This document shows, piece after piece, positions 895 through 30,860 of a stretch of DNA of 36,695 bases. The DNA is from Candidatus Woesearchaeota archaeon (GTDB lineage Archaea > Nanobdellota > Nanobdellia > Woesearchaeales > B72-G16), in assembly GCA_003650545.1 (NCBI GenBank), contig QMQO01000001.1:68845-105539 (forward strand). The letters run 5' to 3'. The position numbers were made by a program, and so were the translations under genes. Below the pieces are notes generated by a model. That model worked only from the letters and a program-made list of their open reading frames with translations, ran no database searches and was not told where the DNA came from. The first letter of the stretch is position 1. Every line of letters begins with the position of its first letter.

Positions 895-3800
895 TTATTT
901 GCATCCATAAACCTTTATGCTTTTTCTTGCGACTGTGTAGCGGTTTTTGTCTTCAACAATAACTCTTAAATAGCTGTTTTTTGGAATAGCGGCTTTAGTA
1001 TTACAAGTGAACTCATCATCTGCTGTCTGTTCCAGAAGTTTTGGGCAAATCTCTTGATTAACATAAACATTAACCTTTTCTGGGATCTGGCTACAGTCTC
1101 CTTCACGATTGATCTTTATGGTTATCTTGCTATTAATAGGTAAGGGTGTTTTTTGTTTTTCAGGGCAATCATTAACTTCAGGCTCGATGATCTGGATACA
1201 ATGTTCAAGTGATGTATATTCTTCGCCTTTGAATTCTGCAATAATAGCTCCTGGTTCGCAGACTTCGGCAAAATCTGCATCAACAACAGGAGCAACAGCA
1301 CTTGGTGTGCTATCTGTGGTGTAGTATAAATCAGCATGTACTTCGCCTTTTCCAATCGAGAATATGTTTTGGAGGAATGTTTTCATGTCTTCATTATCCT
1401 TATAGTCACTTATATCTGTAGAGCATCTTACTTTAATATTTTCTAGATTGTCAATTGAGATTTTATTTTTATATTCATTTTCTTTTTTGCAAATAAGTTT
1501 TCTGTCTTTGTTATTTATGTAGATATCTATATATGCATTATTCGCTTCACGTGCTCCACAATCATTTGCTACAATCACTTTAATATCTTCACCTTTACAT
1601 AGTGGCTTGCTTGCAACATCGCTTCTTGAAACAGGTTCTATTATTTCTAGCTTGGCGTTGTGTTTACAGATATTGAAGTCTTTAGGGATCATGGCATCGT
1701 ACACTGGCTCGAGCGTAAGTACGAGTTCATTTCCCTCAGAATCTCTCAGCACTTCTGCGCTCTCACCAGTATAATCTTGAATATTTGGATCAGCGTCGTT
1801 GTTCTTGTCGTTGAATAATGTTAACTCTAGCTTGTATCTGCCTGTTTTGAAATCAGGTATGATTTTTTCAGGAGTCTTCTCAAGAATATAGCTAACTTCG
1901 TCATCAACTTTAGCATAGACTGATAATGGTTTAACACTGGGCCGAGTTAAATATATGTTTATATAGCTATTACTAACATCGGAATCATCAGCATCACACT
2001 CTACAGCATATTCATCATCTTTAGTCTGCTGACACTCTATTGTCTGTCTTTGGCCATTTTTAAATAACACCCATTCAGCAGTTATATGATAATATTGGAC
2101 TTGTGTAGTAGAGGCCTCACTACCAATTTCTTCAGTCTGTGTTAATCTTCTATCTGCTACAATAAAAGATATCTTGTGAGGTTGATTATTTTCTATTTTA
2201 GAGATGATTTGAGAGATGTCTATTGGGCCTATTCTGAATTTTTCTTCTTCTTCTTTAAGATTGCTAAATGGTCCGTTTTCACCAAATTCAATAGCCTTGA
2301 TCTCTCTTGGTTTGTCTGGAGTAAGTGTCATAAAGTTACTAATTGTGCCGCGCTTTTTTTCAGTTCCATCAGGATCTTTCAACACCCATTGAACAGATAT
2401 GGGGATTGGCTTTTCAGCATCAGTAGATTCAAGATCGAACTTGACAAACAGAGGACTTCCAGGATAGTATCTCTTGTTTTGAGGCACTAACATTATTTTG
2501 TGCTTTGTAACAGAACCAAAGAATGCTTCAGGCATCAGGCTCTGGCATTTTATCCCAGGTGGAACAATGCTGAAACTACACATATACCCAAGGCCGCCCA
2601 TAAGCTTTATGTTTTCAATCTTTGGCTTGTCATTGCCAGGCTTTGTGAATGAGCCATGGATCTTGTAAGTGTCACCTAGTTGGTATTCATATTCTAGTAT
2701 AACCTTGTTGAACCAATCACCTGTATCAATATTATAATGCATTGTCTTTGTTACCTGGCTCATTGCAGGGATTGTGTATTGTTCTATAAGTAAAGGTTGT
2801 TGTTGGGGTTTACAGCTTTCCTTGTGTTCACCACTTAAAGGATCACACACTAACCAGAGTCTATAGGTTACATCAGTGCTGCCAGAGATTATACCAAGAC
2901 TGATTGTGTAGTCAATACTCAGCTTGTTTGTGAATGGGTTATAGTAGCCTGCTCTTGCCTTTGGCATCATAGGACCTATTATTGGCGGTGTTGGTACAGT
3001 GATGATAGTATCAATTAATGCGTTTATGTCTGTCCAGTCGCCTGTAAATGCAACCATGCAAAACTTGTTAACTAAACCATCTCTGGTAAAACCAATCTGG
3101 CTTGCTAGCTTTGTTCCTGCATATCTGTCCTCAATTGTCTGTTTTGCGGGGTTATCTTGCATAAGTTCTATCATGTTCTCTTTTCTATTTATAAATGTTT
3201 GAGGTCTGTCTCTGGTTGCATACTTCCTAAGCGCGTAGCCGATCCAGTCGCATGTGTACTGGCCGATCATGCGCTCACAATAACCGCCTTGTACCTTACC
3301 ATAATAGGCTTCTGATAGACATTGTTTCATAGCTTCTAGGATTCTCTTATAATTAAGAAGGTGACTATGTATTCCTGTGATACAACCACACTGTATGCTT
3401 GTGATTATGTCGTCATAAGGATTGATGTTTTTCTTGCCAAAGCATTTGACATCGTCAAAGTATGGAGCTTTATCAATATAACAACCTCGCGGCAGAGCTA
3501 GACGTTCTTTGCCAAAACGAGGATTATTTCTTATAGATTGGATATCATCAGAGAAGAATTGTTGATACTCTAGGTTATCAACGCAGATATAATATTCCTC
3601 AGCCCCAGACGATCCTATGCCGCCATATGCAACTGCAGCACCAGGAAAACCAGTGTAGCCTATGACTGTTCTCTTTACAAGCTTCTTGTTGTTCTTGCAT
3701 TTTATGGTTGCTTTGTTATCTTGTGTGGTTATCTCAAAATCTTGGCTATCTAATTGTTTGTATGATTTATATATATCTGAATTCACACTTATTGTTGCTT

Positions 3801-5982
3801 TCTCTAGGTCATATTCATACTTGAACACCTTATTACCAATCTTGAATGTTTTTGTTTGTTTCTGCAACAAGGCGTTTTCTGCAATTTTCCTGTTCTCTGG
3901 GGTATCTTTTAAATTATTATTATCAAGATAGGCCTCAATTTTCTTGTCAGTGATTGCATTATTGATCTGTTTAGATGTTAAGCCGAATCTGTTGCAGTCT
4001 GGTGGTACTGAGGGACAACCAACTCTGTCACACACACTATACAATGAACGTTGATTGCTTTCTGAATATGGTGCAAAGAGATTGTAGAGCTGATGCGCAA
4101 CACAGATGCCGAGTGCTGCTTTTGATGCTGAGCTGGTGTATTTTGTTATCTTTTCCAAGCCTTTGATTCCTTTATTCAATGTTTTTATTGTCTTGTTCAC
4201 GAACTTGGGTGAGAGCCATCTGCTTGTTTCTAATGGCTTTTCAACCTTGATTTTGTGCTCAATATACTGAATTTTAATTGTGTCTGTTTTATCGCCAGCT
4301 TCTTGGTAAGTAATCCTAACCTTTAGTGCAAAATCAATAGTGTCAGGAAGATCTTTGTAGACATCTCCCTGGAACTGTCTGACCTGAATCTTGTTATAAA
4401 CAAACCAGTTGTTTTGGTCATCTCGCCATGCGCGAATGCCTTTGTGATCTTTAACTGCGATGAAATGGTTATCTAGCCTGTTACCATCAAGATCGATTGA
4501 GATGCTTTTTATCTTAACCCTGGTTGGATCGCCTATAACATAATTTAGATCGTACATTAATGAGACCTCAACAGGGCCTAAACGCATGGTATCTGTATAA
4601 ACTTCATTTGGTATTGTAAAGACGTTTGTGATTTGCCACTCGTTTGCACCAGGAACCATCTGGAACATTACTGATGTCTGAGCAATATTGCCTGCCTCGT
4701 CCATTGCAATAATAGTAAGGTGGTTTGCACCTTCTGCAATGCCGATGTATTTCTCAAAGTTTCCTGGACCTGCATGAAATGTTTTATCGTATTTGGCGAT
4801 TTCAGCGAACAGATCTATCCTGGTTGGATCTGTTGGATCATTGGCTTGGAGTATGATGTCGCCTGTCGGGCTTGTCATGATTGTAACAAAGTCTTTATTA
4901 AGCTGCTGAGTGAAGGCTTCCTCGCCAGTGTTTATAACACGGACCCATGCTTCTTCTGAGAGTTCGCCTTCCAGCTTGATAACTGTTTTATGATATGGAC
5001 CTGGATCGCTTGTTATCGTGATCGTAGGCGGCGTTACATCGACCTTAACATCGAAGCTATGTGTTGCATTATTTCCTGCTGCATCCCTAGCAAGAAATGT
5101 TATTCTATGAATTGCTTCACCTGTTATAGGAAAGGTATCATTTATCCTACCTGTCGTTGCGTTGAATCCTGTGAGTTGCTTGAAATCGCATCTGCTTATA
5201 TTTTTTGGTGTTACATAGTCTTTTTCTGTTAGAATCTCATCGCAAAAAAAGATTGTTACATTTTCAGATACACTACCTGTTACAGGAAGTTTTGCTTTGT
5301 AAGTTGCCTTTGGCAGCGGATCAATAACAAAAATAGGAGGGTCTATATCAATTGTAGTGGTGAACCACTCGGTCTTTATATTTCCTGCAGGATCTTTGCT
5401 TATAACAGTTACATTATTAAAACCACGGTTTAGAATGACAGAGAAATTAAATTTACCAGAAGAACCTGTCTTAAACATATAATCTGTAGTGCCTCCGATC
5501 AGTGGAATCTGTTTTTGACCAAGGAATACTGTGATTTCTGTGTTGGGCTCAGAGCCACCAGACACAGGAAACTTGAATCTGTTGTAATATTTTGGTAGTG
5601 CGTCCAATAATATACGGATGTCTTTTATCTCTTGTGTTTTGAAGTTATAATATCGACCATGATTATTATCTATTGTGTTGTTGAGACCTATAATGAAATA
5701 ATATATTGTGTCTGGCTCTAGATTTTCAATTATGAAGGTGTGTTGCTTCATCACAGCAGGAATTGCGATTGTGTTGTTTAGGTTAGTTCTTTCTTTACCA
5801 TAGTGTATTGATGTGTTGTAATATTCTGTAGTGTTAAATCTGATTATGGCTGAGTCGAGTGTTGTCTCTTTCTTGATAGTTAAGGCGGATGATGCTGGTA
5901 TGATTATTAGAGTAATGATTATTAGAGTAAATAGGATAATCAAACCTAAGATTTTATCTGATTTATTTGATCTCTGGTGCAT
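895..5982 (-). CDS. Very large (~1695 aa) secreted/surface protein with N-terminal Fn3/Ig-like repeats and a Cys-rich central region
   Basis: The ORF track gives 895..6057. ATG 5982 (MHQRSNKSDKILGLIILF...) is preferred because it has a GAGGT Shine-Dalgarno-like motif and is followed by a signal-peptide-like hydrophobic stretch. Repeated Ig-like motifs: SKDPAGN, ARDAAGN, AMDEAGN with DxxPP. Confidence 0.75.
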   Translation of the reverse strand: MHQRSNKSDKILGLIILFTLIIITLIIIPASSALTIKKETTLDSAIIRFNTTEYYNTSIHYGKERTNLNNTIAIPAVMKQHTFIIENLEPDTIYYFIIGLNNTIDNNHGRYYNFKTQEIKDIRILLDALPKYYNRFKFPVSGGSEPNTEITVFLGQKQIPLIGGTTDYMFKTGSSGKFNFSVILNRGFNNVTVISKDPAGNIKTEWFTTTIDIDPPIFVIDPLPKATYKAKLPVTGSVSENVTIFFCDEILTEKDYVTPKNISRCDFKQLTGFNATTGRINDTFPITGEAIHRITFLARDAAGNNATHSFDVKVDVTPPTITITSDPGPYHKTVIKLEGELSEEAWVRVINTGEEAFTQQLNKDFVTIMTSPTGDIILQANDPTDPTRIDLFAEIAKYDKTFHAGPGNFEKYIGIAEGANHLTIIAMDEAGNIAQTSVMFQMVPGANEWQITNVFTIPNEVYTDTMRLGPVEVSLMYDLNYVIGDPTRVKIKSISIDLDGNRLDNHFIAVKDHKGIRAWRDDQNNWFVYNKIQVRQFQGDVYKDLPDTIDFALKVRITYQEAGDKTDTIKIQYIEHKIKVEKPLETSRWLSPKFVNKTIKTLNKGIKGLEKITKYTSSASKAALGICVAHQLYNLFAPYSESNQRSLYSVCDRVGCPSVPPDCNRFGLTSKQINNAITDKKIEAYLDNNNLKDTPENRKIAENALLQKQTKTFKIGNKVFKYEYDLEKATISVNSDIYKSYKQLDSQDFEITTQDNKATIKCKNNKKLVKRTVIGYTGFPGAAVAYGGIGSSGAEEYYICVDNLEYQQFFSDDIQSIRNNPRFGKERLALPRGCYIDKAPYFDDVKCFGKKNINPYDDIITSIQCGCITGIHSHLLNYKRILEAMKQCLSEAYYGKVQGGYCERMIGQYTCDWIGYALRKYATRDRPQTFINRKENMIELMQDNPAKQTIEDRYAGTKLASQIGFTRDGLVNKFCMVAFTGDWTDINALIDTIITVPTPPIIGPMMPKARAGYYNPFTNKLSIDYTISLGIISGSTDVTYRLWLVCDPLSGEHKESCKPQQQPLLIEQYTIPAMSQVTKTMHYNIDTGDWFNKVILEYEYQLGDTYKIHGSFTKPGNDKPKIENIKLMGGLGYMCSFSIVPPGIKCQSLMPEAFFGSVTKHKIMLVPQNKRYYPGSPLFVKFDLESTDAEKPIPISVQWVLKDPDGTEKKRGTISNFMTLTPDKPREIKAIEFGENGPFSNLKEEEEKFRIGPIDISQIISKIENNQPHKISFIVADRRLTQTEEIGSEASTTQVQYYHITAEWVLFKNGQRQTIECQQTKDDEYAVECDADDSDVSNSYINIYLTRPSVKPLSVYAKVDDEVSYILEKTPEKIIPDFKTGRYKLELTLFNDKNNDADPNIQDYTGESAEVLRDSEGNELVLTLEPVYDAMIPKDFNICKHNAKLEIIEPVSRSDVASKPLCKGEDIKVIVANDCGAREANNAYIDIYINNKDRKLICKKENEYKNKISIDNLENIKVRCSTDISDYKDNEDMKTFLQNIFSIGKGEVHADLYYTTDSTPSAVAPVVDADFAEVCEPGAIIAEFKGEEYTSLEHCIQIIEPEVNDCPEKQKTPLPINSKITIKINREGDCSQIPEKVNVYVNQEICPKLLEQTADDEFTCNTKAAIPKNSYLRVIVEDKNRYTVARKSIKVYGCK

Positions 5983-25299: not shown

Positions 25300-25890
25300 A
25301 TGAAAAAACTAGAAGAACATGTTGAAAGAACTTTAATTCTTGCAAAGCACGATGCTATCCAACGTGGTTTAGTTGGAGAGATAATCAAAAGGTTCGAGAA
25401 TCGTGGAATGAAGATTGTTGCATGCAAAATGGTAGAGCCAACGGAAGAAATGTTGGCTTTGCATTATCCAGATGATGAAGAATGGAAGAAGAGAGTTGGA
25501 GCTAGAAACAGAGAGATCATGGCTGAAAAAGGTATTGAGATGAAAGAGAGTGATGTTGAATTCGGTGCCATGATAAGAGCATATAACATGGCAAGTTTAC
25601 GTGGTACCCCGTTACTAGCATTTGTGTTTGAGGGTTTGCATGCAGTTGAGATCGGAAGAAAAATAGTAGGTCATACAGAACCTCGCAAGGCTGATCCTGG
25701 AACAATCAGAGGAGATTTTTCAACAGAGAGTTTTCAGTTAGCAGATGTTGAGAAACGAGTTGTTCGTAACTTAGTGCATGCATCTGGCTCGAAAAAGGAA
25801 GCTGAAAACGAGATTAAGATTTGGTTTAAGGACGAAGAGATCTATGACTATGAAAAACACGACTGGGTTGTGATGCATAGCTTTGACTAA
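25300..25890 (+). CDS. ndk: Nucleoside diphosphate kinase
   Basis: ERTLILAKHDAIQRGLVGEII, PGTIRGDF and NLVHASGS. Confidence 0.93.
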   Translation: MKKLEEHVERTLILAKHDAIQRGLVGEIIKRFENRGMKIVACKMVEPTEEMLALHYPDDEEWKKRVGARNREIMAEKGIEMKESDVEFGAMIRAYNMASLRGTPLLAFVFEGLHAVEIGRKIVGHTEPRKADPGTIRGDFSTESFQLADVEKRVVRNLVHASGSKKEAENEIKIWFKDEEIYDYEKHDWVVMHSFD

Positions 25891-25912: not shown

Positions 25913-26581
25913 TTGAATGTTGTACTATTAGGATCGCAGGGTGTTGGGAAAGGTACGTATGCACAACGTTTAAAGGATATCTATAAGATTCCACATGTTG
26001 CAATAGGCGATCTATTCCGAGAAGAGATGAGAAGTGGCAGCAAGCTTGGCAACAAAATTGCTGAATTTGTAAATACCGGTAAGTTAGTCCCTGATGATAT
26101 TGCGCTAGAAGTTTTGAAGAAAAGACTCACAAAAAAAGATACAAAAAACGGTTTTTTGTTGGATGGTTTTCCTCGCACATTAGACCAGGCAAAGGCTTTG
26201 GAAAAGATAACTAAGATTGATAAAGTTATTTATTATCATGCAAGCGAAGATGTTATTGTTGATCGTCTAAGCGGAAGAAGAACTTGTAGGAAATGTGCGC
26301 ATATTTACCACATTAAATTTTTACCACCTAAAAAAGAGGGTGTTTGTGATATCTGTGGAGGAGAACTCTACCAAAGAGAAGATGATTATCCTGAAGCTAT
26401 CAGGAAAAGACTTTCTATTTATTACAAGAAAACCGCTCCCCTTATTGATTATTATAAGAAGAAGGGTTTGCTTGTCGAAATCGACGCTAACCTAAATATT
26501 TCAGATCCAAGATCGCATATTATTAAAGACACGCAAGATATTTTAGACAGATTAAAACAAGAAAAACAAATGAAAAATTAG
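25913..26581 (+). CDS. adk: Adenylate kinase (long, zinc-lid type), TTG start
   Basis: GSQGVGKGT, GFLLDGFPRT and a CxxC...CxxC lid. Confidence 0.93.
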   Translation: MNVVLLGSQGVGKGTYAQRLKDIYKIPHVAIGDLFREEMRSGSKLGNKIAEFVNTGKLVPDDIALEVLKKRLTKKDTKNGFLLDGFPRTLDQAKALEKITKIDKVIYYHASEDVIVDRLSGRRTCRKCAHIYHIKFLPPKKEGVCDICGGELYQREDDYPEAIRKRLSIYYKKTAPLIDYYKKKGLLVEIDANLNISDPRSHIIKDTQDILDRLKQEKQMKN

Positions 26582-26602
26582 ATCTTTGATAGATGAAGAT
26601 GG

Positions 26603-26686
26603 AAAAAATATGCTAAAAAAATATGCTAAAAAATGTGCTAAAAAAATGCACAAAATGTCTAAAAAAAAATATGCAGAAAAAATATA
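26603..26686. repeat. Degenerate tandem repeat of AAAAAATATGCT-like units in the adk-fusA intergenic region
   Basis: About 6-7 imperfect 11-14 nt units are visible directly. Confidence 0.6.
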
Positions 26687-27071
26687 CTGCTTCTATGCCC
26701 ATGTTTGCTAAGGAATATTTTAAATAAACTATGATTTACTATTTTAAATAACATAGAATTTAACATTTACGAACCTATACAACTTTGAAGTTGAACGAAA
26801 GATTTAAAAACGGCTCTCAAATACTTTGATATAACTTATCCTTAAGTAAGAATATGTTACCACTGTTACCACATCTTGTGGTTAACAATTTTCGCGGATT
26901 TGAATGACGAGAATGACGAGCAAGGATAAATGTTGCAAAACCTGTTTAAATGCAATAAAATAGCTAATCAATAGCGTAAAATTCAAAAAATTTAATTATT
27001 ACTCAATGAGAAGAAAGATGCTCAAGATTTAGAAATTGATTTGGACTTTATGAGAGGAGGTATGAAAAAAC

Positions 27072-29287
27072 ATGGCTGAAAGGATGGTTGAAAAGGTTAC
27101 TAGGCTCATGAAAGAGCAATCACAAATCAGAAACATCGCTATTGCGGCCCATATCGATTGAGATTAAAGCGAGAGCTTATTCTCCGAGTGCATGGAAAAA
27201 CCACATTTTCTGATAACCTTCTAGCTGGTGCTGGAATGATGGCTGAAGAACTAGCCGGAAAAGCTTGTGTTCTTGATTTTCGTGAAGACGAACAAGAAAG
27301 AGGAATCACAATCGATGCTGCCAATGTTTCGATGGTGCATGAATTTGAAGGCGAAGAATATCTGATAAATCTTATCGATACTCCAGGTCATGTTGACTTT
27401 GGCGGCGATGTAACAAGAGCGATGCGCGCTGTTGACGGTGCTATTGTGCTTTGTTGCGCTTCTGAAGGGATAATGCCTCAGACAGAGACTGTTCTGAGGC
27501 AGGCTCTAAAAGAAAGAGTTAAGCCTATCTTATTTATCAATAAAACTGATCGCTTGATCAAGGAGCTTCAGCTAACGCCTGAAGCAATGCAAGAACGATT
27601 TATTAACATAATAAACAATGTTAATCAACTGATAAGAGGTATTGCAGAAAAGGAGTACGCAGAAAAATGGCTTGTTAATGTGCAGGATGGTAGCGTTTGT
27701 TTTGGTTCTGCATTTCATAATTGGGCGTTATCTCTTCCATATATGAAAAAGAAGGGAATTACGTTTAAGGATATAATTTCTGCTTACCAAAGTGGAAATG
27801 ATGAGGATTGGAAGGCTCTTAAGAAAAAGGCGCCATTACATGAAGTTGTTCTTGATGCAGTTGTAAAGCATTTACCAAATCCTCTTGAAGCTCAAGAATA
27901 TAGAATCCCTAAGATTTGGCACGGTGAACTTGAAAGTGAAGAAGGTAGGTCGTTAGTCAAATGTGATTCGAAGGGACCATTATTTTTTGTGATTACTAAG
28001 GTTGTTATAGATCCGCAGGCTGGCGAGATTTCAGCTGGCAGGCTCTTTTCTGGAACAATGACTAAAGGAACTCAGGTTTTTTTGAATCGTGCAAGGCAAC
28101 ATGCAAGGATACAACAAGTTTATATTTATAACGGAGCAAAGCGCGAGATTGTTGACAATGTTCCAGCAGGAAACATAATAGGTGTTGGTGGATTGAAACT
28201 GGGTTTACCTGGTGAAACAGTAACCTTTGAAGATACAGAACCGTTTGAGAAGATCACTCACATCTTTGAGCCGGTTGTAACAAAGGCAATCGAAGCTAAG
28301 AAGCCTAGCGACTTACCAAAGTTAATAGAAGTGCTAAGGCAGGTCCAGAAAGAGGATCCTACTATAACAATCAATATTAATGAGGAGACAGGTGAGCATT
28401 TAATGAGTGGGATGGGAGAACTCCACTTGGAGGTTATTGAGCATAGAATTGTTAAGGATAAAGGTATCGAAGTACAGACTTCCCCTCCTATAGTTGTTTA
28501 CAGAGAAGCAATCACAAAACCAGGTGAGGAATATATGGGTAAGTCACCTAACAAACATAATCACCTATTTTTCGAAGTAAGACCATTAATGCCAGAGGTT
28601 GCGAAAAAAATAAAGAAGGATGAAATATATGAAGGTAGGATCAAGAAAAAGGATCAGAAGTTGATAGATGCATTTGTTGAGGCTGGCTATGATGCAAAGA
28701 CAGCTGCGAAGATTAAGAATGTTTGTAAAGGCAATATACTAATAGATGGTACTCGAGGTATAGTACATATTGGCGAGATAATGGAGATGGTAAATGACAT
28801 GTTTGAAGATGTGATGAATGCAGGTCCAATAGCAAGAGAGCCTTGTATTAATATGGAGGTTACACTAACTGATTGTAAACTACATGAAGATGCTATTCAT
28901 CGTGGACCTGCACAGATCTACCCTGCTGTTCGTGAGGGTATCCGTGGAAGTATTATGTCTGCAAAACCCATTATATTTGAACCAGTACAAACATTACAGT
29001 TTGAGGCACCAGCAGAATATATGGGCGAGTTGAGTAAATTAGTGAGCAATAAACGTGGACAGTTATTGGAGATGAACCAAGAAGGAACGATTGTTGTTGT
29101 TAAGGCAAAGTTACCTGTTGGAGAAATGTTTGGATTAAGCTCAGACTTAAGATCTGCAACAGGAGGCAGAGGAAACTTCTATTTGATTGACCAGAGCTAT
29201 CAAAAACTGCCAGACGAGTTACAACAGAAGATCATTAAACAGATTCGTGATAGGAAAGGTTTGAAAGAAGGGCAGGTTGGGGTATAG
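27072..29287 (+). CDS. fusA: Archaeal elongation factor 2, intron-split: exon 1 27072-27158, exon 2 27191-29287 (727 aa after splicing)
   Basis: Exon 1 MAERMVEKVTRLMKEQSQIRNIAIAAHID joins exon 2 HGKTTFSDNLL...ERGITI...DTPGHVDF...HEDAIHRGPAQ. GAGGAGG lies upstream. The ORF-track start at 27158 is an artefact of the intron. Confidence 0.95.
27159..27190 (+). other. 32-nt BHB-type mRNA intron in the EF-2 gene
   Basis: Sequence TGAGATTAAAGCGAGAGCTTATTCTCCGAGTG. Exon helix CCAT/ATGG, central helix ATCG/CGAG, bulges AT|T and TG|C, intron helix GAGA/TCTC, terminal AAGC-GAGA-GCTT hairpin. Confidence 0.88.
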
Positions 29288-29567
29288 ATTCTTAATAGAT
29301 TCTTAAATTAATGTAGCTTAGGTTAAGTCAACCTTGATAGGTTAACTTTGATAGGTTAAACTGCCCTGTTTCACATGTACCAAAGATGACTAGAAGCATC
29401 TAATATTAGCATACTTATTAGCACACTTAAGTTGATAGTGCCATTAGCTTGAATCAAAAAATTGTTCTGTTAAATAATTATTTTCTTATATAGAAATAAT
29501 AGTAACATTTATAAATATGGTCAAAAACCCATATAGAACTTATTTATAATAGTTGGAGGGGTATTAC

Positions 29568-30860
29568 ATGGCAAAAGATAAAGAACATATCAACATAGTG
29601 TTCATCGGACATGTTGATCATGGTAAATCCACGATTGTTGGAAGATTACTATTTGACAGCGGTAATATCGATGAACAGACACTTAGAAAGTTGAAGGAAA
29701 AAGCAGCAGAGCTAGGTAAAGCTGGCTTCGAGTTCGCTTTTGTGATGGATAACCTGAAAGAGGAGCGAGAACGTGGGGTTACTATTGACCTAAGCCATAA
29801 GAAGTTTACAACTGATAAATATTACTTTACTATAATCGATGCTCCTGGACATAAAGACTTCATCAAGAACATGATTACCGGCGCAAGCCAGGCTGATGTA
29901 GCTGTTCTGGTTGTAGCTGCAAATGATAGTGTGATGGCACAGACAAAAGAACACGCCTATCTTGCAAAGGTACTTGGAGTGCAACAGATGATTGTTGCAA
30001 TTAATAAGATGGACATTAAAGGAGTAGAGTATAGTGAAGAACGATTCAACAAAGTTAAAGAAGATGTCACAAACTTGCTAAAGTCGATAGGATTTAAGAC
30101 AGAAGAGATACCATTCTTGCCTGTTGCAGCTCTTGTTGGGGATAATATTGTAAAAAAGAGTGAAAAAATGGAATGGTATAAAGGCGATACTCTTCTGCAG
30201 GCTATGGATAACCTAAATCCACCAGAAAAACCTACTGAATTACCATTGAGACTACCAATACAGGATGTATATAATATTACTGGTATTGGTGTTGTCCCTG
30301 TTGGTAGGGTTGAGACAGGCGTAATGAAGGTTGGCGATAAAGTAATTGTTGTGCCAGCTCGAGAAGGTAAAGGTATAACTGGTGAAGTGAAGAGTATAGA
30401 GATGCATCATGAGCAGATGGATCAAGCTGAGCCTGGTGATAATGTTGGTTTTTCAGTGAGAGGTATTGGAAAGAAAGATGTAGCAAGGGGAGATGTTTTA
30501 GGCCACGTAGATAATGTGCCGACTGTAGCAGAAGAATTTACAGCGCAGATTATTGTGCTAAATCATCCTAGTGTGATAACTGCTGGTTATACACCTGTTT
30601 TCCACATTCACACAGCACAGGTTGCATGTACTATTACTGCGATTGAAAAGAAGCTAAACCCTGCAACAGGTGAAGTTATGCAGGAGAATCCTGATTTTAT
30701 CAGGAATGGCGATGCTGCTATAGTAAAAATCAAGCCAACACAACCTTTATGCATTGAAAAGAAAGAAGATATTCCGCAAATGTCAAGCTTTGCTATTAGG
30801 GATAGTGGTGCGACAGTCGCAGCAGGTATGTGTATTGACTTGAAAAAGAAAGAAATATAA
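29568..30860 (+). CDS. tuf: Archaeal elongation factor 1-alpha
   Basis: [26 protein letters not shown] and NKMD. ATG 29568 follows a GGAGG SD motif. Confidence 0.97.

Follow-up and report, generated by a model that had tools for sequence, protein, structure and literature searches.

For two decades, bulge-helix-bulge (BHB) introns in archaeal coding sequences rested on one gene, cbf5. The pre-mRNA of this pseudouridine synthase gene carries a BHB intron in Desulfurococcales and Sulfolobales (Watanabe 2002; Yoshinari 2006; Yokobori 2009, PMC2738675); according to the accessible part of the last report, the intron is 16–44 bp long, lies at the codon of the catalytic Asp, is cut after the second base of the bulge and is too short for a homing nuclease. 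Besides their own case in the 5′ untranslated region (5′ UTR) of a Haloferax gene, Schwarz et al. (2020) name only the crenarchaeal cbf5 intron as a reported mRNA intron in the available part of their text (PMC7714728). Here we describe a 32-nucleotide (nt) insert in the gene for elongation factor 2 (EF-2) of a Woesearchaeota archaeon, at positions 27159–27190 of a 36,695-nt stretch of genomic DNA. This whole stretch, hereafter the window, corresponds to G000:C1:68845-105539, where G000 stands for the metagenome-assembled genome of the organism (1.64 Mb, 133 contigs, 85% complete). The insert is very probably a spliced intron of a type otherwise described for a single archaeal protein gene, cbf5, and it is one of a family conserved among DPANN archaea.

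Among the texts reached by a full-text literature search, with subscription journals and supplements outside its range, none reports EF-2 as the site of a BHB intron. This fits the initial annotation, which was made from the letters of the window alone and whose author knew of no described case. The mRNA introns of the BHB type that the search returned were those of cbf5 and one in a Haloferax 5′ UTR. The sole paper containing both ‘bulge-helix-bulge’ and ‘elongation factor 2’ uses EF-2 as a tree marker only, as far as its accessible part goes (PMC3082918), and archaeal mRNA introns are unmentioned in the parts examined of a 2026 review of non-canonical splicing (PMC13149111).

The EF-2 insert resembles the cbf5 introns, as these are described in the accessible texts, in several respects: both are short (16–44 bp in cbf5, 32 nt in EF-2), contain no open reading frame (ORF) and interrupt a coding sequence at codons of a catalytic motif, both show a BHB-like fold in which the cuts in the bulges coincide with the exon borders, and both have a patchy distribution with gains and losses. 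The EF-2 insert differs in its site, which is the P-loop of another gene, and in its lineage, which is DPANN. Whereas cbf5 introns are tied, in the parts of the literature available, to a hetero-oligomeric splicing endonuclease (EndA) of relaxed specificity, the present genome encodes a single unit of 176 residues; and whereas cbf5 splicing was shown by cDNA, splicing of EF-2 is inferred from DNA. Furthermore, relatives of the EF-2 intron adjoin a free-standing LAGLIDADG gene; the cbf5 report mentions only that its intron could not hold such a nuclease. The BHB intron of Haloferax volcanii HVO_1309 is an mRNA substrate of the archaeal splicing endonuclease, as the EF-2 intron is predicted to be; according to the available text, however, it lies in an untranslated leader, where it is independent of the reading frame, and its splicing was shown both in vivo and in vitro (PMC7714728).

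The position of the insert follows from the protein. The EF-2 reading frame opens at ATG 27072 and runs for 29 codons (MAERMVEKVTRLMKEQSQIRNIAIAAHID) before it meets the stop codon TGA at 27159–27161. The motif HGKTT begins at 27191 in a different frame, within an ORF (27158..29287) that translates as ...LILRVHGKTTFSDN.... Deletion of 27159–27190 in silico yields an EF-2 of 727 residues containing ...AAHIDHGKTT..., which places the insert in the P-loop, directly behind the Asp codon and in front of the His codon (AHID|HGKTT). These observations reproduce what the initial annotation had read from the two frames. Exon 1 (27072..27158, plus strand) ends where relatives read ...IRNIAIAAHID|HGKTT, and exon 2 (27191..29287, plus strand) holds 698 codons (HGKTTFSDN...) and the stop. 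Since moving the deletion by one base to the left or right alters residues, the boundaries are unique and are fixed by the protein alone. Against the NCBIfam profile for archaeal EF-2 (TIGR00490), exon 1 matches profile positions 4–29 (19.4 bits, E 2.4e-4) and exon 2 matches positions 30–718 (998.4 bits), which exceeds the curated cut-off of 738.45 by exon 2 alone; the two exons therefore abut exactly, without loss or overlap. The predicted spliced junction reads GAT|CAT, with the residues …CATATCGAT-CATGGAAAA… and the junction peptide NIAIAAHIDHGK. A Shine-Dalgarno-like GGAGGT (27056..27061, plus strand), presumably functional, stands 10 nt before ATG 27072 and supports a translation start at exon 1 over one at TTG 27158. 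An intein, which would be inserted in frame, contain no stops and have Cys, Ser or Thr as its first and its +1 residue, was rejected as an explanation of the insert: the length of 32 nt is not divisible by 3, and its first codon is TGA.

The insert and its borders, all on the plus strand, show the anatomy of a BHB intron. The outer helix (H1) is formed by CCAT in exon 1 (27149..27152) and ATGG in exon 2 (27192..27195), and the central helix (H2) by ATCG at the end of exon 1 (27153..27156) and CGAG in the intron (27185..27188). Three of the four pairs of H2 are standard, with a non-standard A27153.G27188 at the end. The remainder of the intron (27160..27184) forms a hairpin with the helix H3 (GAGA/TCTC, 27160–63 with 27181–84), an inner stem AAGC/GCTT and a GAGA loop at 27171–74. 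Two 3-nt bulges, ATT (27157..27159) and TGC (27189..27191), lie on opposite strands on either side of the central helix, so that the arrangement required for a BHB is slightly relaxed by the A.G, and helices flank the motif on both sides (H1 and H3, 4 bp each; H3 is 3–10 bp long in the family described below). Under the BHB rule, by which either bulge is cut behind its second base, the predicted cuts follow 27158 and 27190, and these two cuts correspond to the only deletion that restores AHIDHGKTT. The minimum-energy fold of 27140–27205 contains H1 (CCAU/AUGG), UCG/CGA with the A.G unpaired, the bulges AUU and (G)UGC, H3 (GAGA/UCUC) and the GAGA-capped apical stem, and thereby bears out the layout that had been proposed from inspection, namely the bulges, a central helix with three of four pairs and a capped intron hairpin.

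We determined how often such a motif occurs in the genome with the intron length fixed at 32 nt and a score at least equal to that of EF-2 (H1 4, H2 3/4, H3 4). On both strands of contigs C1 and C2, a BHB at least as good was found at 43 of 394,612 positions (1.1e-4). Applied to the tRNA-His gene of the genome, whose precursor spans C6:25228-25317, the same rigid rule found a 16-nt intron exactly at the boundaries given by ARAGORN, with a score of (6,4,3); the EF-2 intron scores (4,3,4) at boundaries that are set independently by the protein.

The insert has counterparts in other archaea. Alignment with EF-2 genes (fusA) of related genomes, which the initial annotation had suggested as a check, gave an uninterrupted AHIDHGKTT in 29 of 29 loci fetched first, which came from different families of the same order and were 68–79% identical. 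An order-wide search then compared 401 genomes with the intact N-terminus of the nearest relative, and the 75 weakest were listed again. Among these, one genome (G127) carries a 22-nt insert exactly at the D|H boundary and another (G272) a 30-nt insert at the same boundary, in frame but with two stops; no second EF-2 N-terminus was listed in either genome, and both are 92–93% complete. In addition, one genome per species (185,579 species) was scanned for the pattern CATATHGAY, followed by 12–42 bases and CAYGGNAARACNAC...GAYAAY; this pattern demands CAT for the first His and leaves GC-rich lineages outside its coverage. The scan returned 26 loci, with titles from Woesearchaeota, Nanoarchaeota and Aenigmatarchaeota (DPANN) and three labelled Methanosarcinales. 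Thresholds of H1 ≥ 3, H2 ≥ 3/4 and H3 ≥ 3 at D|H are reached by 23 of these; in two more the sole shortfall is an A.C in H1 that goes with a CAC codon for His, and one (L073) has its insert at the neighbouring I|D boundary. The same pattern in metagenome contigs gave 38 loci, of which 37 could be parsed and 31 pass, with 22 new distinct introns. Insert lengths in the family range from 22 to 37 nt, nearly all at the D|H boundary; one metagenomic intron (L080, 37 nt) resembles that of the window and is preceded by identical exon-1 residues. In 25 of 25 D|H loci, exon 1 forms an open frame that translates as M...IRNI..AHID, and exon 2 is open to its stop in 21 of them (692–704 residues) and open to the contig end in the other 4. 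As inserts of the same shape occur at the same codon boundary in dozens of related archaea, the EF-2 insert is very probably a spliced mRNA intron; we regard this comparison between genomes as the decisive line of evidence.

The inserts of the family also covary. The alignment comprised 24 distinct rows, the window and 23 loci, after L073 (insert at another site), L069 (identical to L059) and L076 (identical to L053) had been dropped. Standard pairs were present in 89.3% of cells compared to 73.9 ± 1.2% in shuffles, and the covariation score was 0.449 compared to 0.136; neither value was reached in any of 500 shuffles. Because the rows are kin and one of them served to define the structure, these shuffle figures are not probabilities. 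When partners were slid by 1–3 columns, pairing fell to 21–46%. Helix 1 is paired in 88.3% of cells and helix 3 in 95.8%, the latter with changes on both sides in 5 of 5 counted pairs. Over the whole structure double-sided changes occur in 6 of 14 pairs, and the double changes in these six pairs are the solid part of the covariation evidence. In the central helix, 20 rows combine ATC-G in the exon with CGAx in the intron, and the other 4 combine ATT-G with CAAx, without exceptions; a UA pair thus stands in place of CG in 4 of 24 rows, a double change. The first position of H2 holds A.G in 14 rows, A-U in 7 and another combination in 3, and all four pairs are present in 7 of 24 rows; the motif of the family is usually one pair below canonical.

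The conservation pattern also bears on a different route by which the gene could be expressed, in which the ribosome skips the insert by a translational bypass of the phage T4 gene 60 type or by a frameshift. As in gene 60, a stop directly follows the last codon of exon 1, and a hairpin comes after it. For a bypass, however, take-off and landing codons must match, and here they are GAT and the GTG ending at 27190; a −1/+2 shift in the overlap of the frames would insert about 11 foreign residues into the P-loop; and the features conserved in the family are the helices and bulges of the BHB, not codons. We consider translation across the insert barely credible.

A tree of 49 exon-2 proteins (20 with intron, 29 without) requires at least 6 intron changes, at least 4 of which are forced by well-supported branches, and the nearest rows to the window are all intronless. 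The sample is unbalanced, as the intronless rows all come from the window's own order. Three intron loci (L054, L065 and L076) are titled ‘uncultured Methanosarcinales archaeon’; their EF-2 groups with Woesearchaeota and Nanoarchaeota rows on the tree, and from these sequences the label looks wrong.

The insert is present in the DNA as assembled twice. Misassembly had been raised as a concern from the start, and a contig from a second assembler (Logan, 19,592 nt, depth 33.8) covers 26600–28100 with 0 differences, no indel and no joint, possibly from the same reads. The notion that the 32 bases are absent from the DNA of the organism draws on the metagenomic origin of the genome with its 133 contigs, and scaffold-gap artefacts do exist in the EF-2 of a relative (G049). 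Against it stands the second assembly of 19.6 kb at a depth of 33.8, though it may share its reads; moreover, an assembly or sequencing artefact would neither fold as a BHB at frame-restoring points nor recur in unrelated assemblies, and we give it only the slightest chance. The gene is also the only one of its kind that we could find: a search with exon 2 of the whole of G000 matched only this EF-2 and EF-1alpha. An intact second fusA, which would have pointed to a decaying copy here, was therefore not found in the 85%-complete genome, and the mini-intron (27159..27190, plus strand) is single-copy.

Both enzymes expected by the initial annotation, EndA for cutting and RtcB for joining, are encoded in G000. 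The sole splicing endonuclease gene (G000:C6:38244-38774, minus strand) encodes 176 residues and scores 117.5 bits with TIGR00324 (cut-off 59.6); in length it matches the single-unit (alpha4) type. According to the accessible part of Kaneta et al. (2018), alpha4-type EndAs of DPANN archaea with an extra loop accompany more disrupted tRNA genes (PMC5829648). One RtcB is present (PF01139, 456.7 bits; G000:C10:11502-14324, minus strand), and its Pfam match is split by ∼1.5 kb within a frame of 1008 codons, which is probably an intein.

The insert might also be removed from the RNA by some other endonuclease or ligase, or by self-cleavage. The imperfect central helix with its A.G and the single-unit EndA would favour such a route; a length of 32 nt, however, falls far below the size of a group I or group II intron, and there is no Rfam match there. 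Self-splicing introns of these groups were rejected on the same grounds, as the insert of 32 nt compares with a core of hundreds of nt and a search of the window at Rfam gathering thresholds returned two tRNAs only. The geometry is that of EndA substrates, the rule fits the tRNA-His intron of the same genome, and EndA and RtcB are both present, so that we regard another route of removal as very unlikely.

Taken together, we put the probability at roughly 85% that 27159–27190 is an intron of the hBHBh′ type in the single archaeal EF-2 gene of the genome, cut by EndA and joined by RtcB. The proposal of the initial annotation, a BHB mRNA intron in the P-loop of EF-2 processed by these two enzymes, is thus supported by same-site inserts with compensatory changes, by intact exons, by the presence of genes for EndA and RtcB, by the lack of a second EF-2 in the 85%-complete genome and by the recovery of the insert in a second assembly. 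In the pre-mRNA, CCAU of exon 1 would pair with AUGG of exon 2 (H1) and the exon sequence AUCG with CGAG of the intron (central helix), while the intron would fold into its own hairpin (H3). The two 3-nt bulges that result would be exposed on opposite strands, and the single-unit EndA of 176 residues would cleave after the second base of each, after 27158 and 27190. RtcB would ligate the exons to GAU|CAU and restore the EF-2 of 727 residues, and the intron would probably be freed as a small circle. An unspliced message would stop at the first codon of the intron (TGA) after 29 residues.

Several observations weigh against this reading. The only public run that holds the stretch is a DNA run, which may be the window's own source, so that the second assembly is not fully independent, and no RNA run is among the public sequencing runs listed for the stretch. 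A second EF-2 could lie in the missing part of the genome, which is 85% complete. None of the nearest EF-2 relatives sampled has the intron. The fold energy is unexceptional (−10.7 kcal/mol, where shuffles average −10.63; z −0.03), and fold stability is therefore not used as evidence for the EF-2 intron. Finally, the central helix is one standard pair short, with an A.G in its place, both in the window and in 14 of 24 rows of the family, and a single-unit EndA of alpha4 length is classically considered to need a strict motif.

Four of these points, the listing without an RNA run, a fold energy like that of shuffles, the nearest relatives without insert and the 85% completeness, would also fit an unspliced lesion, that is an EF-2 that was recently disabled or a defective variant that dominates the assembly, with the fold a by-product of the near-palindromic CCAT ATCGAT CATGG. 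EF-2, however, is essential, and it is single-copy in G000. Exon 1 retains its start, the Shine-Dalgarno-like GGAGGT and its conserved residues, and in 25 of 26 genome loci, as in most of the 38 metagenome loci, an equivalent covarying insert stands at this boundary between intact exons, a recurrence that independent lesions would not produce. The exon palindrome, moreover, gives H1 only; the partner strand of H2 and the whole of H3 lie in the intron and covary. We therefore consider a lesion unlikely, with a small residual chance, and a spliced intron by far the better account of the locus.

If the intron is spliced, translation elongation in these organisms depends on working EndA and RtcB, and the RtcB of G000 itself carries a probable intein. 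Gene callers would report an N-truncated EF-2 from TTG 27158 that is missing exon 1; as EF-2 is a common phylogenetic marker, such mis-annotation matters.

Some intron loci of other genomes share a second feature. In 6 of the 26, an ORF of ∼400 residues on the same strand ends at the EF-2 start. Five of the six ORFs reach the Pfam cut-off of LAGLIDADG_3, and all six are 33–57% identical to each other over their full length; two further loci (L055 and L074) retain only part of the upstream LAGLIDADG ORF. A profile built from the six ORFs is matched in 8 of the 26 intron loci from species genomes, whereas none of the 29 intronless loci gives a match. Among the 38 metagenome loci, which have only 600 nt of flank each and some of which repeat genome loci, 10 match the profile. 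Fisher's test on the first count (6 versus 0) gave a p-value of 0.008, with the qualification that kin are not independent. A further endonuclease match in L066 was rejected: it lies inside EF-2, has 20% identity and was unconfirmed by the profile search.

In the nearest intronless relative, the gene for nucleoside diphosphate kinase (ndk) directly abuts EF-2, ending 2 nt before its start. In the window, ndk (25300..25890, plus strand) is followed by the adenylate kinase gene adk (25913..26581, plus strand; NF001380, 265.7 bits) and then by a gene-free spacer of 490 nt (26582–27071) in front of EF-2; the EF-1alpha gene (29553..30860, plus strand) lies downstream. When read through stops, the spacer contains a possible eroded remnant of a LAGLIDADG C-terminus at approximately 26780..27023 (plus strand; profile positions 304–382). 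Its score of 9.3 bits is weak, and it was reached in 0 of 200 shuffles (maximum 7.3). This is a hint that the spacer holds a decayed endonuclease gene.

The LAGLIDADG gene upstream of 8 of 26 intron loci and of 0 of 29 intronless loci suggests a selfish origin of the intron rather than a regulatory one. Most likely the intron entered as part of a selfish cassette with a free-standing LAGLIDADG gene that would since have decayed here, and it probably has no service role. The initial annotation had thought that the intron could couple EF-2 supply to tRNA maturation; such coupling is possible as a consequence of the splicing, but the idea found no support, and the LAGLIDADG association in relatives points to a selfish element instead. 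The link makes the origin and movement of ORF-less BHB introns testable.

LAGLIDADG enzymes are encoded by archaeal rRNA BHB introns, I-DmoI being an example, and in phages free-standing endonucleases take part in collaborative (trans) homing with ORF-less introns. A tentative model, to which we give somewhat less than an even chance, is that the EF-2 intron and the upstream gene form a two-part mobile element of DPANN archaea: the nuclease would cut the intronless P-loop codons, the BHB intron would break the target, and the pair would spread by collaborative homing. The locus in the window would then be an end state, in which the intron is fixed, EF-2 depends on the tRNA-splicing enzymes and the endonuclease has eroded in the 490-nt spacer. 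If true, this model would give ORF-less BHB introns in protein genes their first proposed mechanism of mobility, and it would explain the placement of BHB introns in the most conserved codons. As in the phage systems, the nuclease gene lies outside the intron and the intron interrupts the presumed target site; in contrast, the phage introns are self-splicing group I introns in phage genes, whereas the EF-2 intron is predicted to be spliced by proteins and sits in an archaeal chromosomal gene. Archaeal rRNA BHB introns, as described in the accessible parts of the literature, share the LAGLIDADG link, a patchy, mobile-looking distribution and highly conserved sites (PMC2738675, PMC3082918); their endonuclease ORF, however, is inside the intron, whereas the EF-2 intron is ORF-less and the nuclease gene, where present, is free-standing and upstream.

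The P-loop inteins of archaeal translational GTPases are a further parallel, as they are selfish insertions in the same few codons; they differ in being in frame and removed from the protein, whereas the EF-2 insert causes a frameshift and has a stop as its first codon. Probable inteins after AHI(D/H)HGK were seen in at least eight relatives from the order, namely L040 (G011), L043 (G194), L046 (G286), L047 (G159), L048 (G313), L049 (G246), L050 (G076) and L051 (G382). These inserts are in frame, start with Cys, comprise ∼200 to 520 residues and lie 9 nt downstream of the intron site. In another locus, L045 (G320), a 32-nt frame-shifting insert one codon earlier (AHI|DHGK, ∼1085–1116, minus strand) is followed by an intein. 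Frame-shifting inserts of 31–32 nt at AHI|DHGK were also found in L073 (2505–2535, plus strand), L086 and L093. The AHI|DHGK inserts fail the rigid BHB rule with scores of (0,2,0) and (0,2,1); the RNA nevertheless folds into a long hairpin, and these inserts may represent a relaxed motif or other cut sites. In L052 (G189:C1, 2455–2457), EF-2 lacks ∼20 residues near DTPGH (G3) with a frame change at that point, for which a deletion, a misassembly or some further processed element may be the cause. Two candidates were rejected: an apparent three-piece EF-2 in L035 (G049:C141) is an artefact of scaffold N-runs (408–545 and 1260–1346) with 20–25 flanking bases duplicated, and a match in G310 that begins at the P-loop does so merely because the contig ends there.

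A genome-wide search for further BHB-split genes, which had also been suggested at the outset, was carried out as a homology-free scan of G000 and gave 298,054 relaxed candidates. There was no enrichment of candidates that join ORFs, as the filter left 5,740 matches in G000 compared to 5,664–5,866 in frame-shifted controls. Stricter criteria left 96 candidates; the EF-2 intron is among them, and the remainder resembles adjacent genes and repeats. With the tRNA family RF00005 we counted 8 matches in G000 (85% complete), 9 in the nearest relative G002 and 14 in G016 (one contig, 100% complete), compared to 23, 40 and 37 in G007, G021 and G022. ARAGORN found 7 tRNAs in G000, 4 of them with introns. 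These numbers suggest lineage-specific bursts of tRNA gene disruption; we read the low tRNA counts as heavy use of BHB introns in the lineage and count them in favour of the EF-2 intron. Within the window, a 156-nt match to RF00005 (18399–18554, minus strand, 38.7 bits) is called by ARAGORN as tRNA-Ile(aat) containing an intron of 82 nt; both the isotype and the layout of the intron look doubtful.

The endA gene sits between trpS and the gene for RNase Z (G000:C6:36600-39800, L032). An N-truncated tryptophanyl-tRNA synthetase beside endA was considered and rejected: the gene is intact, and the fetched locus began inside it. According to the available text, a pairing of endA with trpS is described for Haloferax as well (PMC7714728). 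Probable inteins with LAGLIDADG-like segments were also seen in a Cdc48-like ATPase (G000:C7:7485-11171, plus strand) and in an SMC-like protein (G000:C12:28500-32492, minus strand; GSGKS|C). The LAGLIDADG homologues on contigs C7 and C12 were accordingly rejected as free-standing genes, as they lie inside these long frames. Similar short perfect hairpins followed by GGTATC|CT stand near the starts of three contigs, at G000:C7:77-100, C40 78–101 (minus strand) and C16:83-106.

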